A stretch of DNA of 12,818 nt, from UHGV virus genome UHGV-0342252. One strand, written 5' to 3'. Below are positions 1,551-11,249 of the stretch, in pieces. This DNA comes from a virus. Each line of letters begins with the position of its first letter. The first letter of the stretch is position 1. Position numbers and translations under genes: made by a program. The notes below the pieces were generated by a model. The model made no database searches. It saw only the letters and a program-made list of their open reading frames with translations, and was not told the origin of the DNA.

Positions 1551-3431
1551 TTAATACTCCGTCACGTTTTCCTGTCGCCACGCCTCGTCATATTCCGATT
1601 TCGGCATATTGGCGATGTAGCTATAAGGCGATCCTGATTCAAGTTGCAGGAACTGGTGCGATTGCTCGTCAAGGAACAAAGGGACGCCACCTTCCCAACC
1701 TTCGCCGTTACGTTGTTTTTCAAGCATCAAAACAGATGCCGGAGATGCCAGTAGCTGTTCGTCCTTCTCTGACATCTTTTCACCACTCTGAACTCTCTGT
1801 AACGCTCTCTCGCGAGCCTTGTTACGCCAGATGATGAAAAGGTTGTCTGTCAGGTCTGTTATCGCTCCAGAGCCTTTTACGTCCATTTTCCCGGTTGGTT
1901 TTTCTTCGCTGTCTCCTTTTCGCGAGTGAGTAACGAGAATGACGTGGGAGTTTGTTTTGTTTTTGAAGTCGCAAATCGAGTCAACAAACGCCTTCTGCCC
2001 GTTATAGTCATCGTCGCCTATGCCACATTTCATCAGGCTGTCGATGATGAATAACTGGATCCCGTATCGGCGGCGAGCGTAGTCGAATATTTCGATCAGC
2101 CTGTCGGCTTTCGCCGTTCCGGTCAGACCAAACACCCAAAGTCTTTCGTCATAAAATTTAAATGCAGAGTCAATTTCCAGCACTGGCGGCATCTTGCAGC
2201 ACGTCGCCTGACGGGTAAGGCGCTTAAGGAGAATACCAGGCTTCAGCTCAAGTGACGCGATGCACGTCTTCACACCCTGACGCATTGCCTCAAGTGCCAT
2301 ATGCCCGACAACCTCCGTTTTTCCGTGACCGTTCACACCATTGACCAGCGTCAACTCTGCCTCACGGAACTGGAATTTATCTGCCAGAGATTCCCACGGT
2401 GGATTAAACAGATACTGCTGCTTGCCGTAGAAAGCGTTGATAGTGTCCTGGTAAAACTCTCGCGCGCTGTAGAGTTCTTCAGGATCGAAGTAGGATGCCG
2501 TGCCGATGTACTGCCAGATTTCATCCTCGGTAACACCGTTCATCAGGCATTCGTTGATGTCTTTGTACGGCAGAGTAACAAGACGGCAACGATGTTCACC
2601 GAGTCGGCTTGCGATTTCCCTTGCGGCTTCACGACCAACATCATCAACGTCCATCGAGATGAATATTTCCTCAAACCTGTCGAGGTTGTGATACTCAAAC
2701 TCAATCCACTGTTGCTTAGCGCCTTTCCCGCCACCAAACGGCACGGATAACGCCGAGATGCCGTATTGCGCATAGCTCATACAATCAATTTCGCCTTCGC
2801 AAAGTACAACCGCCCTCACGCCAGCGTCCAGAGCCTGCCATCCGAACAGACAAGGTTCGCAATCACCTTCTGCCATAATGACTTTCTTCCCGTCCGGGCG
2901 CTCAGTGCTGATTCGCTTGACCTGCAACAACTCACCATCGCGTTTGTACGGAATCACCAGAGCATCCAGTTCTCGCTCTCCATTCCACACCTTGCCGCTG
3001 ACAACCTCGTAGCGCTTTACGACTTCTGGCGATATGCCACGCGATTGCAGGTACTCAAGATGGGATTCTGTTCTGGTAACGTAGCGGGCGATTTTCTTGC
3101 GATCAGGTCTGGAGAATTTCTTCTCACGTTTGGCATCGAAATGGTGATCGTCATCCTTGATACCGAGAAATGCTTTCGCTTCCTGCATAGCCTGATGCAG
3201 GTTAATTCCTCGACATGCCATCCACAAATCAAGCATGTCACCGCCGTCCCCCTCAGCGAAATCAGCCCATTTTTTCTTGCCGCTAAGGTTGACCTTAAGG
3301 CTGTTTCCCTTGTCACCGTTGACGTTACCGGCAACCCACTCATGCCCCTCTTTCTTGCCGTTTGGCAACAGGTGCGGAGCCACCCTGTCAACCTGCGCCC
3401 AAAGCAGGTCGCTAAGTTCACTTGGCGTCAT
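1551..3431 (-). CDS. primase-helicase fusion (Toprim primase + DnaB/T7 gp4-type SF4 helicase), 626 aa
   Basis: Toprim motifs (VVLCEGEIDCMS; ISMDVDDVGREAA), Walker A (NGVNGHGKTEVV), Walker B-like (QLFIIDSLMK). N-terminal region resembles a primase zinc-binding domain but has no cysteines. ATG overlaps the stop of a small upstream ORF (ATGA). Confidence 0.85.
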   Translation of the reverse strand: MTPSELSDLLWAQVDRVAPHLLPNGKKEGHEWVAGNVNGDKGNSLKVNLSGKKKWADFAEGDGGDMLDLWMACRGINLHQAMQEAKAFLGIKDDDHHFDAKREKKFSRPDRKKIARYVTRTESHLEYLQSRGISPEVVKRYEVVSGKVWNGERELDALVIPYKRDGELLQVKRISTERPDGKKVIMAEGDCEPCLFGWQALDAGVRAVVLCEGEIDCMSYAQYGISALSVPFGGGKGAKQQWIEFEYHNLDRFEEIFISMDVDDVGREAAREIASRLGEHRCRLVTLPYKDINECLMNGVTEDEIWQYIGTASYFDPEELYSAREFYQDTINAFYGKQQYLFNPPWESLADKFQFREAELTLVNGVNGHGKTEVVGHMALEAMRQGVKTCIASLELKPGILLKRLTRQATCCKMPPVLEIDSAFKFYDERLWVFGLTGTAKADRLIEIFDYARRRYGIQLFIIDSLMKCGIGDDDYNGQKAFVDSICDFKNKTNSHVILVTHSRKGDSEEKPTGKMDVKGSGAITDLTDNLFIIWRNKARERALQRVQSGEKMSEKDEQLLASPASVLMLEKQRNGEGWEGGVPLFLDEQSHQFLQLESGSPYSYIANMPKSEYDEAWRQENVTEY

Positions 3432-6901: not shown

Positions 6902-7372
6902 ATGACAAAATCATGGAGCGTACCTTTTCCTGAATCAGAAACTGAACATGATGGAATGCCTGTTTTCTGGAGATTCCAGGCGACAGTTGAAGAAGATGGA
7001 ATCAAAATATTCGCACTTCAATATATAGCTTTTCATCAGACAGAGCATTATGCATGGTTGGTTCCTGCGCATTGGATTGTTAATTTTAAACCAGCACCAA
7101 ATCAGTGGTTACAGGAATGGAAACAAAAGAGAAATAGATATGCAATTAAGAAAGTAGCAAAAAATGCAGAAAGATCTTTTGCATTCCCAACGAAGAAACT
7201 TGCCATTGAAAGTTTATTGCGCCGGAAGAAATACCATTTAATGAGAATCAAACAAGATTTGGCTGTTGTATCAACTCTTGTTGATGGGATGAAGAATATT
7301 GATACATCAACACCAGATATTGAATATAACTTTGGACACAACCAAGAAACAGAAAATTGGGTATTTTATTAG
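6902..7372 (+). CDS. hypothetical protein (156 aa) encoded by an A+T-rich insert after N
   Basis: SD GAGGTGAG directly after the N stop, ATG 8 nt downstream. Coding sequence is visibly A+T-richer than N and cIII (judged by eye, not computed). No motif recognised. Confidence 0.65.
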   Translation: MTKSWSVPFPESETEHDGMPVFWRFQATVEEDGIKIFALQYIAFHQTEHYAWLVPAHWIVNFKPAPNQWLQEWKQKRNRYAIKKVAKNAERSFAFPTKKLAIESLLRRKKYHLMRIKQDLAVVSTLVDGMKNIDTSTPDIEYNFGHNQETENWVFY

Positions 7373-7476
7373 TACAAATAAGCACTGTGTATTCATTCCA
7401 ACGAGTGAATACACGGAGCAATGTCGCTCGTAACTAAACAGGAGCCGACTTGTTCTGATTATTGGAAATCTTCTTT

Positions 7477-7503
7477 GCCCTCCAGTGTGAGGGCAATTTT
7501 TTT
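7477..7503 (+). terminator. intrinsic terminator between the 156-aa gene and the coiled-coil gene (tL1-like position)
   Basis: GCCCTC-CAGTGT-GAGGGC hairpin (7477..7494) followed by AATTTTTTT (7495..7503). Confidence 0.65.
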
Positions 7504-7515
7504 GACGGAGGATAT

Positions 7516-8484
7516 ATGAGTGAAGTAACAGATTTAGTTGTTATTGAAAAAGCAAATGCAATGACTGTATTTCAGTCTGCCGACCAGATTGAAGAAATCC
7601 TTCAAAAGGTTGAACGTGAAGTTATGTCCTTTGTGCCTGATATCACAACGGCAAAGGGCAGAAAGGAGATCGCTTCTCTGGCGTATAAAGTTGCGCAGAC
7701 GAAAACATATCTCGATGGTCTTGGAAAAGACCTTGTTGCTGAACTGAAGGAAATTCCAAAGCTAATTGATGCCAACCGCAAGACAGTGCGTGATCGCCTT
7801 GATGAGCTGAAATCCAAGGCACGCCAGCCTCTTACTGATTATGAGGAAGAACAGGCGCGTATTAAAGCCGAAGAAGAAGCTAAGGCAGCAGCTGAAGCTC
7901 TCGCAAAGCAAATTGAGTCTGACCATGAAATAGCGATTTTGATGGATCGCGAATTTGACCGCCAAAGAGAAGAGGCAAGACTCAAAGCGGAGCAGGAAAA
8001 GCGAGAGCATGAAGAACGCTTAAAAAGAGAAGCTGAAGAGAAAGCCAGAGCAGAAGCCGAAGCAAAGGCAAAAGCCGAAATTGAAGCAGCAGCAAGGCGA
8101 GAGGCAGAAGCTAAGGCCGCAGCGGAACGTGCAGAGCGTGAACGCATTGAAGCCGAGCAACGAGCACAGCGCGAAGCAAAAGAGGCAGCAGAACGAGCTG
8201 AAAGAGAAAAGCAGGCAGCAATTGAAGCAGAACGCAGAAAAGCACAGGAGGAGGCTGAACGAATCCGTCGCGAGGCTGAAGCAAAAGAGCAAGCCAGAAT
8301 AGCAGAAGAAAAAAGAATCAAGGACGAAGAAGAGCGCAGAGCAAAGGATAAAGCTCACCGGAAAGAAGTAAATAACAAAATACTTGCTGACCTTATCAAG
8401 GTTGGCGCATCAGAAGATGTTGCTAAAAATATCATAACAGCCATCGTAAAAGGCGAAGTATTCGCAACAAAAATAACCTACTAA
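7516..8484 (+). CDS. coiled-coil protein with long Glu/Ala/Lys/Arg-rich helical domain (322 aa), function unknown
   Basis: Start set at ATG 7516 (SD GGAGGA, downstream of the terminator) rather than the ORF-track start 7462, which lies upstream of the terminator hairpin. About 110-aa N-terminal domain, about 175 aa of EAEAKAKAE / ERAERE-type repeats, short C-terminal domain. Confidence 0.7.
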   Translation: MSEVTDLVVIEKANAMTVFQSADQIEEILQKVEREVMSFVPDITTAKGRKEIASLAYKVAQTKTYLDGLGKDLVAELKEIPKLIDANRKTVRDRLDELKSKARQPLTDYEEEQARIKAEEEAKAAAEALAKQIESDHEIAILMDREFDRQREEARLKAEQEKREHEERLKREAEEKARAEAEAKAKAEIEAAARREAEAKAAAERAERERIEAEQRAQREAKEAAERAEREKQAAIEAERRKAQEEAERIRREAEAKEQARIAEEKRIKDEEERRAKDKAHRKEVNNKILADLIKVGASEDVAKNIITAIVKGEVFATKITY

Positions 8485-8760: not shown

Positions 8761-8963
8761 TTACGGTAGAACTGGCGAAAACCCCAGAGTTAAGTCGATT
8801 AAAAAGAGAGTATCACATTGCTGAGGCTCGTTACTGGCGTAAAGCGGGAGATAAATCAAAGAAACAACTTTGTTTATGGCAAGCACAAAGAGAGCGCATG
8901 AATGAGCGCGAATTTCTTTCCTCCCCATCCGAATTACCATTCGGAGGTGAATTATGGATTTGA
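8757..8963 (+). CDS. hypothetical small protein (68 aa) at the position of lambda gam
   Basis: ATG 8757 overlaps the kil stop (ATGA), SD GGAGG upstream. No resemblance to lambda Gam noted. Confidence 0.5.
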   Translation: MITVELAKTPELSRLKREYHIAEARYWRKAGDKSKKQLCLWQAQRERMNEREFLSSPSELPFGGELWI

Positions 8964-9661
8964 ACAAATTCGATGAGCCATTCAGCCCTGAAGATATCGA
9001 ATGGCGAATACAGCAAAGCGGTAAAACACGCGATGGCAAGGTGTGGGCTATGGTGCTGGCTTATGTCACGAACCGGGCAATCATGAAGCGCCTGGACGAT
9101 GTTTGCGGCAAAGCAGGATGGCGCAATGAATACCGCGATATTCCCAACAACGGCGGAGTTGAATGCGGCATATCAATCAAGATTGATTCCGAATGGGTAA
9201 CCAAATGGGATGCTGCTGAAAACACGCAGGTAGAAGCCGTCAAAGGTGGTCGTTCCGGTGCAATGAAGCGCGCTGCCGTTCAGTGGGGAATCGGTCGGTA
9301 TCTGTATAACCTTGAGGAAGGTTTCGCACAAACATCTCTCGATAAAAAGCAGGGATGGCACAGGGCAAAACTCAAGGATGGAACAGGATTTTACTGGCTC
9401 CCTCCATCGCTGCCGGGATGGGCAATCCCAGCATCAGATAACAAACCATCACCAGAAAATACCAACCAGAAATCTCCATCGGTTGACTGCGAACAAATCC
9501 TGAAAGACTTCAGCGATTATGCATCAACAGAAACTGACAAGAAAAAACTCATCGAGCGTTATCAGCGTGACTGGCAATTAATGGCTGGCAACGAGGAGGC
9601 GCAGGCTAAATGCGTTCAGGTAATGAACATCAGAGTTAACGAACTAAAACAGGCGGCATAA
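8954..9661 (+). CDS. single-strand annealing protein, Rad52/Rad22-type core (235 aa)
   Basis: Strong SD GGAGGTGA; motif GAMKRAAVQWGIGRYLYN resembles the Rad52-family annealing signature; sits where bet/erf lie in lambdoid phages. Pro/Ser/Asn-rich linker precedes a separate C-terminal domain. Confidence 0.7.
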   Translation: MDLNKFDEPFSPEDIEWRIQQSGKTRDGKVWAMVLAYVTNRAIMKRLDDVCGKAGWRNEYRDIPNNGGVECGISIKIDSEWVTKWDAAENTQVEAVKGGRSGAMKRAAVQWGIGRYLYNLEEGFAQTSLDKKQGWHRAKLKDGTGFYWLPPSLPGWAIPASDNKPSPENTNQKSPSVDCEQILKDFSDYASTETDKKKLIERYQRDWQLMAGNEEAQAKCVQVMNIRVNELKQAA

Positions 9662-10168
9662 ATGGCAAGCAGAGGCGTAAATAAGGTGATTATCCTTGGT
9701 CGGGTAGGACAAGACCCGGAAGTTCGATACTCACCATCAGGAACAGCGTTCGCTAACCTGACAATAGCCACGTCAGAACAATGGCGAGATAAAAATACTG
9801 GCGAGCAAAAGGAATTGACTGAATGGCATCGTGTTGCTGTATCCGGGAAACTGGCTGAGGTCGTGGGGCAGTATGTGAAAAAAGGTGATCAGATTTATTT
9901 CGAGGGAATGCTGAGAACCAGAAAGTGGAAAGACCAGTCAGGACAAGACCGTTACACAACCGAGGTTCATGTCGGAATTAATGGCGTGATGCAAATGCTT
10001 GGCGGCATTGGCGACAGCAAACAACAAGCAGCCAGCAGGCAATCACAGAAGCCACAGCAGCAATCATCACCAGCACAACACAACGAACCTCCGATGGATT
10101 TTGACGACGATATACCCTTTGCACCAGTAACTCTCCCCTTCCCTCGTCACGCTATTCACGCAATTTAA
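9662..10168 (+). CDS. ssb: single-stranded DNA-binding protein SSB (168 aa) with extended C-terminus
   Basis: OB-fold region parallels E. coli SSB ([16 protein letters not shown]...[15 protein letters not shown]...[17 protein letters not shown]), Gln/Pro-rich linker, acidic tail [10 protein letters not shown]; ORF continues 15 codons beyond that tail. Confidence 0.9.
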
Positions 10169-10244
10169 TCAGGAGAAAATCATGCCAGCGCCTCTGTATG
10201 GTGCGGATGACCCGCGCCGCTGTTCCGGCAATTCCGTATCGTAG

Positions 10245-10478
10245 GTGCTGGAAAGTATCAAGAATAATCTCGGCGCGTTTCTTGCTCTGCCACCAGAAAC
10301 AAAAGCAGAACGGAAGTACCGACGCGATATACAACTCGCAGAAAAACAGGAAAAAGACCGAATAAACGAAACATCAATCCGACCATTACGCAAAGCCACA
10401 TATACCCACTTCCCTGAATATATCGACCCGCGCCTGCGTAATTACCGCTCACGCTATGGCGCTATCAGTAATGACTGA
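10245..10478 (+). CDS. hypothetical protein (77 aa from GTG), possibly the 3' part of a gene interrupted by an amber codon
   Basis: A strong SD (AGGAG, 10171..10175) and ATG at 10182 open a frame that hits TAG at 10242..10244; the same frame continues from GTG 10245 with no SD of its own. Confidence 0.4.
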
Positions 10479-10653
10479 GGAATTTACAATGAGAGGAATT
10501 GCATACAATCCCGGCATTCTTCCGGCAGAAATGATTATTCGCCAACGCGTAAAGCCAATGCCATCGAGAGAGGAATTGCTTAAGAGAAAGAGTTTCGGTT
10601 CTGTTAATGACAACAAATATCTGAATGCTATGTGGCGGAGTGGGAAGAAATGA
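10471..10653 (+). CDS. hypothetical small protein (60 aa; 54 aa if from ATG 10489)
   Basis: ATG 10471 overlaps the upstream stop (ATGACTGA); ATG 10489 has SD GAGG. Same frame either way. Confidence 0.45.
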
Positions 10654-11249
10654 AACAAATGACACTAATTGAGATGGATGGCTTTCTGAAAGGTAAATGC
10701 ATCCCACGAGATTTAAAGGTTAACGAAACAAACGCTGAATATCTGGTGCGTAAATTTGCTGAACTTGAATCAAAGCTGGAAACGGCGTTGCGTGAGTTTC
10801 GTTCTGCTGGAATCACGATTGATAACCTTGAGGCCAAGTGCACTGCGCTGGCAGCGGAGAATGCGGGGATGAAGTCGGTCATTGAATACTGCATTAATCC
10901 CGACAATCAGCCTGAATACCATGACCAGGGCATGGGATGTGGAGTTGAAGACCACGGCTACCAGCGCGACGGCTATTCGGCTTGTTACTACGGATGGGAG
11001 TCGGCAATGGAACGCGTCTACTCAGAGGTTATTCCAGACGCCATTCCAGAAACCCCAGCCACCGATGCTTTTCTGGCTGAAGTGCGTGCGCAGTGCCTCA
11101 ACGCTTTCATCCAGCATCACAGTGCAGAACTGGATGCGCATATTAAAAACAGTGGTGAGCAGTTCGACGAAAAATCAGTACGCATCAGAGACATCATCGT
11201 CTCAGCCCGCTTGTTCAGGGAGCAAATTCGCAAAGGAGCCGCGCTATGA
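10650..11249 (+). CDS. hypothetical protein (199 aa) with Cys/His/Tyr-rich central segment
   Basis: ATG overlaps the upstream stop (ATGA); the ORF-track ORF starts 18 nt earlier in the same frame. No family recognised. Confidence 0.6.

Follow-up and report, generated by a model that had tools for sequence, protein, structure and literature searches.

Introduction

The C-terminal tip of the single-stranded DNA (ssDNA)-binding protein SSB is among the best-studied protein hubs of bacterial DNA metabolism, and the accepted rule for it is that the last Phe is terminal. In Escherichia coli SSB an OB-fold core and a disordered linker lead to the tip MDFDDDIPF, and the carboxylate and the side chain of the last Phe fill the partner pocket. 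Here we consider the ssb gene of the virus genome UHGV-0342252, of which a stretch of 12,818 nucleotides (referred to below as the window) was analysed. Its product carries the identical nine tip residues after a disordered linker and an OB-fold core but, in contrast to the E. coli protein, has 15 conserved residues after the Phe.

Acidic tails ending in Phe are also found at the termini of the phage T7 proteins gp2.5 (an SSB) and gp4 (a primase-helicase), where they bind the phage's own polymerase. The tail of the window SSB, which we call capped, resembles them in that one type of tail is present on phage SSBs and on primase-helicases, those of phages KNP2 and GAP31. However, the T7 tails are terminal, while the capped tail extends to lambdoid and T1-like phages and to plasmids, and its carriers are without an obvious common partner gene. 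No polymerase gene was seen near the lambdoid, T1-like and plasmid carriers in the local contexts compared. The general view is that lambdoid and T1-like phages rely on the host Pol III.

An addition after the Phe has been engineered in E. coli SSB. The variant with one extra C-terminal Gly (SSB+Gly), whose tip is thereby internal as in the window protein, has no measurable affinity for chi, has lost binding of DnaG and is impaired in vivo, with growth only under slow-replication conditions, the reason being that the free Phe carboxylate is gone and the pocket no longer closes (Naue et al., PMC3045619; PMC3632105). That addition is artificial and one residue long, whereas the natural cap consists of 15 conserved residues kept in mobile elements. 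In phage HK620 the C-terminal NDYPPF tail of the SSB (SSB-2) mediates a specific contact with Sak4 (PMC5928155). This is likewise the SSB of a phage Rec module, and its family, phrog_743, includes a capped protein of phage Omnitron; the HK620 tail, however, is terminal and Sak4-specific, whereas the capped tail adjoins Rad52-like, ERF, RecT and Sak4 annealases alike. Searches of 8 million full-text papers by motif strings and by keywords (extended or internal SSB tips, clamp motif, homing endonuclease gene (HEG), plasmid SSB) returned no description of the extension.

The comparisons described below reveal a large conserved class of phage and plasmid SSBs, together with some primase-helicases, that breaks the terminal-Phe rule in one specific way. 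The extension is well supported as a real, selected and mobile module, and what we say of its partner and mechanism we infer. We propose, at roughly even odds, that it is a genuine, selected and mobile C-terminal short linear motif (the 'cap') placed directly after an SSB-Ct-type tip, which re-steers the tail to another partner.

The acidic tip of the window SSB is internal

The window SSB matches PF00436 over aa 6-104 (E=1.6e-36), belongs to phrog_44 (E=1.6e-66) and is matched by the E. coli SSB structure 1EQQ (E=6.6e-58). It has the N-terminal OB fold and the disordered linker followed by DDDIPF that mark a bacterial-type SSB, but departs from that type in one feature, a tip at the extreme C-terminus with a free Phe carboxylate, in that 15 residues follow Phe153. 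The alignment with the 1EQQ chain stops at query residue 153, where the E. coli chain itself ends, and the tip, the same nine residues in both proteins, is therefore internal here. The original prediction had said that the frame runs on for 15 residues beyond DDDIPF to the stop, and the translation and the end of 1EQQ at the aligned Phe bear this out; its placement of the extension at 10124-10168 needs adjusting, since the start is one codon late (the extension begins at 10121) and the end takes in the stop codon.

A monomer model made with AlphaFold2 (AF2) from a 37-sequence alignment consists of OB-fold strands plus a helix, with a predicted local distance difference test (pLDDT) score of ~76-89 over most of aa 11-100 and lower values at both ends. 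Residues 114-168 are disordered in this model (pLDDT ~30, all <50), and the tail docks nowhere intramolecularly. The extension is present in none of the solved structures matched.

The extension is conserved as a peptide

An alignment of homologues, proposed originally as a check, was made with the whole SSB as query against 5.8 billion proteins, so that matches were not picked by their tail, and the best 120 clusters were examined. The extension is conserved: 111 of the 120 end in a 15-residue extension of the same type, and the other nine comprise one with a 12-residue version, seven ending ...IPF and one frameshifted. The SSBs of HK75 and mEp235, two independently sequenced phages, are 100% identical to the window SSB over all 168 residues, and 1103 of 5426 complete E. 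coli genomes contain DNA resembling the window ssb, annotated there simply as ssb. The extension is genuine and selected, not an error. A sequencing error or a recent mutation of a stop after DIPF, which had been offered as one explanation, has nothing in its favour beyond the comparison with E. coli SSB that prompted it, and is refuted by the identity with HK75 and mEp235, by the 111 clusters, by the hundreds of E. coli prophage copies and by the conservation in plasmids and unrelated phages described below; we regard its probability as practically nil.

Averaged over pairs of extension-bearing clusters, identity is 82% in the extension and 95% in the tip, as against 79% in the OB fold (first 100 residues) and 36% in the linker upstream. 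The idea that the extension might be common and neutral thus holds in its first half and fails in its second, since a segment that equals the folded domain in conservation, and greatly exceeds the linker, is not neutral. Pro155 and Leu158 never vary and His163 hardly does, with conservative changes only at positions 156 (V/I), 160 (F/Y), 165 (I/V) and 168 (I/L). The last six codons of the window gene form an imperfect tandem repeat (Table 1), and the largest cluster (P0001, 588 members, Salmonella) ends ...PRHAI, one 9-bp repeat unit shorter; this suggests slippage that preserves the HAI-COOH end.

For codon analysis, 139 loci were retrieved by a degenerate DNA pattern defined at the amino-acid level. 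They comprise 74 distinct DNA versions, with 4-8 codons used at invariant residues, and over the 15 extension codons pS is 0.51 and pN 0.13, the estimate of dN being biased somewhat downward since the loci were found by an amino-acid-level pattern, one that ~92% of an unbiased set would pass. There are no promoter- or terminator-like sites in 9600-10500, and the RNA in the region of the extension forms a poorer fold than shuffled controls do (z=+1.56); these two observations rule out a DNA- or RNA-level cause of the conservation. No gene is annotated on the opposite strand at the extension in the HK75 record. Given the conservation at the protein level, the predicted disorder and this lack of promoter, terminator, RNA and annotated antisense features, the conserved object is the peptide in the disordered tail, that is, a short linear motif.

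A search with the tail alone of 1.84 billion representatives gave 14 matches, mostly truncated gene calls, and no new carrier family. As a separate observation, one predicted protein of 120 aa (P0122) is chimeric: an N-terminal segment, which we take to be Ead/Ea22-like, runs in frame into the linker, tip and extension of the SSB, presumably as the result of a deletion in a prophage undergoing decay.

Unrelated proteins carry the same tip and extension

To survey the carriers, IMG/VR and a single genome for each GTDB species were scanned for the pattern, and phage and plasmid collections were searched by tblastn. The tip plus extension was found on canonical SSBs of several clades adjoining Rad52-like, ERF, RecT or Sak4 annealing proteins; on a phrog_743 protein of the 'SSB-2' type in Citrobacter phage Omnitron, encoded next to a Sak4 ATPase and alignable to the window SSB over no more than its last 27 aa; on T1-like (Drexlerviridae) SSBs, those of ECH1 (ending ...FEDDIPFAPIGLQYGMSNIYVL) and of loci L096 and L154; on gp4-like primase-helicases of Vequintavirinae/Mydovirus, among them those of KNP2/BIS47 and GAP31, with the ending ...DDDTPFAPIGLQYAKHAIYVI in Klebsiella and Proteus Mydovirus phages and ...DFDNDTPFAPIGLQYANHAIYAL in Cronobacter phage GAP31; and on plasmid SSBs of IncN (pTR4), IncT and Vibrio plasmids, the Providencia IncT plasmid SSB ending ...NDDIPFAGLGASFGKHTIHAIC. 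Among the plasmid matches, 72 of 105 are typed as conjugative. The carriers are all mobile-element proteins that act on ssDNA or at forks, namely SSBs from phages, in three or more unrelated folds or families, phage primase-helicases, and conjugative-plasmid SSBs, from Enterobacterales and Vibrio.

The species-representative genomes gave 20 matches, all in Enterobacterales save one contig labelled Chryseobacterium. Eighteen of the 20 have phage Rec-module or integrase genes as neighbours and none has a UvrA-sized open reading frame (ORF) next to it, and these are therefore prophage copies and not housekeeping ssb genes. Two hits, L133 in this set and L095 in the viral set, are two-codon chance matches and not tail-bearing genes. 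The exceptional contig (locus L142, CACSKA010000001.1, labelled Chryseobacterium sp. 18061, Bacteroidota) holds an enterobacterial-type Rec module with a Rad52-like single-strand annealing protein, a capped SSB, a DnaQ-like exonuclease and Abc2, and the assembly is probably mislabelled or contaminated.

When 144 loci with flanks of ~5 kb or less were compared for gene co-occurrence, no gene family besides the carrier itself was common to all of them, and no candidate for a phage-encoded partner emerged; the annealing proteins next to capped SSBs belong to at least four families. Because lambdoid phages, T1-like phages, Vequintavirinae and IncN/IncT plasmids have almost no other genes in common, the partner of the cap is probably encoded by the host. 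Prophage tail alleles split cleanly by host family, with VTLPF...HAI in Enterobacteriaceae and IGLPY...YVI in Morganellaceae. Co-evolution of the tail allele with a host partner is nonetheless unsupported, as lytic phages of Klebsiella, Cronobacter, Citrobacter and E. coli carry tails of the IG..Y type.

Two plasmid neighbourhoods may be recorded here. On IncN plasmid pTR4 (L229, 2005-3353) the capped ssb is convergent with a gene for a SprT-family zinc metalloprotease 30 nt away, and on an Enterobacter plasmid (L233, 272-1431) the capped ssb adjoins a Shedu-family nuclease gene.

Gain and loss at the Phe/Ala junction

Close relatives ending exactly at ...PF exist in three carrier families, so that the extension is present or absent among close relatives with exact, shared boundaries. 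Among T1-like SSBs, T1 gp27 ends ...FDDDIPF and Rtp49 ...FDSDIPF, each followed directly by the stop, while the relative in ECH1 has the extension. Among the primase-helicases, that of LNA4 (96% DNA identity to GAP31 over the aligned helicase segment) ends ...ENDTPF and that of Salmonella phage 6S ...DNDTPF, while those of GAP31 and KNP2 are extended; KNP2 and 6S have in common the downstream hairpin and the polymerase start, and differ by 45 extra nt plus a few adjacent bases. Read from these alignments, the 45 nt behave as a unit inserted between the terminal Phe codon and the stop.

In the third family the junction is occupied by an endonuclease gene. In phage Sf6 (L160, 424-1386) the SSB, gp27, ends ...DDSDIPF, and the next gene, gp26, codes for an HNH-type endonuclease of 159 aa that has the extension as its own C-terminus. 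Salmonella prophages (L144-L146) have a Sf6-like arrangement with an HNH ORF ending in the extension, and 64 of 65 IMG/VR contigs with the Sf6-type endonuclease (L162-L226) show the arrangement of Sf6, with an SSB ending ...IPF just upstream in 59. The captured extension at the end of the HNH ORF begins with E or A, followed by 14 further residues. Homologues of Sf6 gp26, including those inside polA of Staphylococcus phage K, align only to residues 1-137, and hence the last 14-15 residues of gp26 are a captured ssb 3' end that lies outside the enzyme family; the Sf6 GenBank record itself notes that gp26 has 14 contiguous residues in common with 'E. coli SSB'. Like the free-standing or intron-associated HNH homing endonucleases of phages (e.g. 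that of the phage K polA), to which they are homologous, the Sf6 gp26-type genes are present or absent at an exact site; they differ in that this site is the ssb 3' end, between tip and cap, and in that the endonuclease ORF reads into, and ends with, the last 14-15 codons of the host gene. Three of the seven extension-less relatives among the best 120 clusters (P0010, P0012 and P0013, all with DDSDIPF ends) match such an endonuclease-split allele, as was shown directly for P0013. The extension is thus a transferable module whose start is a site of homing-endonuclease insertion, a property that lay beyond the view of the original prediction.

A second arrangement is found in ECH1 and GAP31, whose related HNH genes (46.8% identity, E=2e-30) begin within the last Tyr codon of the extension; despite their unrelated host genes, the two loci have 63% DNA identity from the tip through the extension into the HNH start. 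T1, Rtp and phage 6S have neither the extension nor such an HNH gene. It is plausible that homing endonucleases have been one vehicle for the spread of the 45 nt, a step that we infer.

These observations raise the question of whether the 45 nt are merely a flank that travels with HNH homing endonucleases targeting the tip-coding DNA, the peptide being tolerated rather than useful. The homologous HNH starts of ECH1 and GAP31 with their DNA identity across the region, the position of the Sf6-type genes exactly at the Phe/Ala junction, and the joint absence of extension and HNH gene from T1, Rtp and 6S are what such a by-product of selfish DNA would leave. Most carriers, however, including the window, HK75, KNP2 and the IncN plasmids, have no adjoining HNH gene; the copies are old, judging from their high synonymous divergence, yet the peptide has been kept; an arbitrary tolerated peptide is hard to square with the severe defect of SSB+Gly; and, as the limits of the gp26 alignments show, the extension is not part of the endonuclease family. 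We consider this explanation improbable. The endonuclease-captured copies of the extension, for their part, show low divergence overall, with singleton amino-acid changes in 8 of 18 DNA variants.

Two related loci deserve mention. In Enterobacter-type SSBs (L147), comparison by eye of the sequence after the stop gave no convincing similarity to a decayed remnant of the extension. In Vibrio phage D60 (L161, 272-1326) the SSB ends ...DFDDDRS, a tip without IPF, and an HNH endonuclease of the same family lies 84 nt downstream; this tip may have been truncated by insertion of a homing endonuclease.

What the cap might do

Because one added Gly abolishes the binding of chi and DnaG, the canonical mode of tip binding would be closed to the capped tail, and the original expectation that an internal tip could alter the binding of host partners is backed by the published SSB+Gly data (PMC3045619, PMC3632105). 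In the mechanism that we propose, the cap would remove the free alpha-carboxylate of the Phe that chi- and DnaG-type pockets need, and at the same time would add a second hydrophobic and aromatic docking surface, P-phi-[T/G]-L-x-[F/Y] ... H-x-[I/V]-[H/Y]-x-[I/L]-COOH. The composite tail of 24 residues might then no longer act as a promiscuous host SSB tip, and perhaps would steer the mobile-element protein to a restricted or different partner. The comparisons of relatives show that the cap comes and goes as a cassette of 45 nt at one exact point, after the codon of the terminal Phe and before the stop, in some cases with an HNH homing endonuclease alongside.

Another possibility is that the extension does nothing but inactivate the tip, such that the coated phage or plasmid ssDNA attracts none of the host's nucleases and helicases nor RecO (ExoI, RecJ, RecQ, RecFOR/SOS) and the host SSB interactome is not titrated. 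A single added residue suffices to abolish chi and DnaG binding, all carriers are mobile elements that expose ssDNA in a hostile host, and abc2 lies directly downstream in the HK75-type module. Plasmid leading regions and phage Rec modules do carry anti-SOS and anti-RecBCD functions. For such a mask, however, any extension or loss of the tip would do, yet at least 10 of the 15 positions are strongly conserved across unrelated carriers and two bacterial orders, and the masked tip itself is 95% conserved. We favour a composite docking motif over bare inactivation because conservation across unrelated carriers extends to the tip and to every one of the 15 residues, and we rate the pure mask as unlikely.

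The extreme C-terminus calls for another consideration. The extension might be a degradation tag or a pro-peptide, its non-polar and His-rich end (...HAIHAI, ...HAIYVI) being read by ClpXP, ClpAP, Lon or FtsH, or trimmed, so that the amount of SSB is limited or a canonical DIPF-COOH tip is released at the right time. ClpX signals include non-polar C-terminal residues, as in MuA-type (...KKAI) and ssrA-type (...LAA) ends, and proteases also control lambdoid O, N, CII and Xis. At the very C-terminus [H/Y]-x-[I/L/V] is found without exception, P0001 still ends in HAI after the loss of one HAI unit, the internal tip remains 95% conserved, as would be expected if it were exposed later, and the IncN ssb adjoins the SprT-family metalloprotease gene. 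The likeness to AAA+ degrons is one of sequence, with an end of H-A-I in the window and Y-V-I, H-A-L or Y-A-L in variants, one Arg, and no basic cluster of the kind found in MuA (RRKKAI). Against regulated turnover stand also the conservation of all 15 positions, including the proline-rich first half, which a simple C-terminal degron would not need, the lack of any direct sign of cleavage or instability, and the presence of a lytic-phage primase-helicase among the carriers, for which rapid turnover has no obvious rationale. Turnover or unmasking seems to us a minority possibility and not a probable one.

Returning to a docking motif, the best single candidate for the partner is the beta sliding clamp, though it is a weak one to which we give a low probability on the basis of motif likeness. 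The clamp-binding consensus is Q-phi-x-[L/M]-x-[F/L], usually with acidic flanks, and its Gln is important though not absolutely required (PMC11139829). Compared with known clamp motifs (e.g. that of Hda, or QLSLPL in engineered epsilon; PMC11139829), the PVTLPF of the extension agrees at the aliphatic, Leu and Phe positions, and it is likewise located in a disordered terminal region with an acidic flank. Clamp positions 2, 4 and 6 are V156, L158 and F160 in the window, and V/I/A, L and F/Y among variants. Position 1 is not Gln; it is Pro155 in the window, Pro in 111 of 111 extension-bearing clusters, and Pro, Ser or Gly in plasmid variants.

Several points weigh against the proposed re-steering of the tail, some of them through the clamp candidate. 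The clamp Gln is absent from each of more than 150 variants, with Pro nearly invariant in its place, while a real motif would be expected to show some Gln; the IncT variant has Ala at the Leu position (4), and position 6 is Tyr or His in some variants (His in one Vibrio plasmid). Nine more conserved residues follow the clamp-like segment, which the clamp motif does not account for. More generally, no binding partner was found for the tail, and the downward bias of dN noted above somewhat flatters the evidence for selection. Sf6-like phages are viable with an SSB that ends in DIPF and with the extension moved onto the endonuclease, and the cap is hence dispensable for growth in at least some backgrounds. 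Finally, part of the wide distribution could reflect spread together with homing endonucleases and not a benefit to the carrier.

If the re-steering reading is nevertheless followed further, mobile elements of Enterobacterales and Vibrionales, including temperate and lytic phages and IncN/IncT plasmids, would have in common a 'capped SSB tip' that rewires the SSB hub to a specific host factor, possibly a component of the replisome, that spreads as a 45-nt cassette, and that is toggled between capped and canonical states by homing endonucleases inserting at the junction. This broader picture we put forward tentatively, as somewhat short of an even chance. It suggests that mobile elements re-address ssDNA-bound proteins, either to evade the host interactome or to capture one host factor. 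The identity of the partner would bear on how phage and plasmid replication and recombination are established, on the portability of recombineering, for which annealing protein and SSB have to match, and on the annotation of SSBs, as PGAP names the capped ones simply 'ssb'. The homing endonucleases inserted at the junction provide natural pairs of capped and uncapped alleles.

Gene context in the window

The gene order around ssb is that of a lambdoid early-left operon, with a Rad52-like annealing protein gene, ssb and abc2 in succession (Table 1). The gap between ssb and abc2 is 13 nt, and no HNH ORF adjoins ssb in the window. A survey of Rec modules classifies the HK75-type module and makes no mention of the tail (PMC12315714).

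Table 1. Positions in the window of the ssb gene, its parts and the genes on either side.
Feature	Position	Strand	Basis or remark
Rad52-like ('Erf-like') single-strand annealing protein gene	8954-9661	+	PF04098 E=5e-26; abuts ssb upstream; order as in HK75
ssb gene	9662-10168	+	168 aa plus stop; PF00436 E=1.6e-36, phrog_44; lambdoid HK75-type Rec module
OB-fold DNA-binding core, aa 1-112	9662-9997	+	AF2 fold; alignment to E. coli SSB 1EQQ/1EYG
Disordered Q/P/S-rich short linker, aa 113-144	9998-10093	+	pLDDT <50 from residue 114; 36% pairwise identity
SSB-Ct-type acidic tip MDFDDDIPF, aa 145-153, internal	10094-10120	+	95% pairwise identity among extension-bearing homologues
Cassette boundary Phe153/Ala154	10120-10121	+	relatives stop here, or have an HNH endonuclease gene inserted
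15-residue extension ('cap' module), aa 154-168	10121-10165	+	111/120 clusters; also on other protein families
Imperfect 9-bp tandem repeat CACGCTATT/CACGCAATT, last six codons, encodes HAI-HAI	10148-10165	+	read from sequence
TAA stop of ssb	10166-10168	+	read from sequence
abc2 (anti-RecBCD) gene	10182-10478	+	downstream of ssb; alignment to HK75 abc2 and HK75 annotation

Three further ORFs on the + strand of the early-left operon (6902-7372, 7462-8484 and 10632-11249) match only PHROGs of unknown function (phrog_1636, phrog_1376/21365 and phrog_614, respectively) and no Pfam family. The abc2 gene of the window has an in-frame amber TAG at 10242-10244, codon 21, where HK75 has GAG; as read, the gene would be either truncated or dependent on suppression or on restart at the GTG at 10245. 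The phage also encodes a primase-helicase (1551-3431, - strand; 626 aa; Toprim and DnaB-like domains) whose C-terminus is acidic and finishes with an aromatic residue, ...EYDEAWRQENVTEY, a tail that is unrelated to the capped one and recalls those of the T7 gp4 type.

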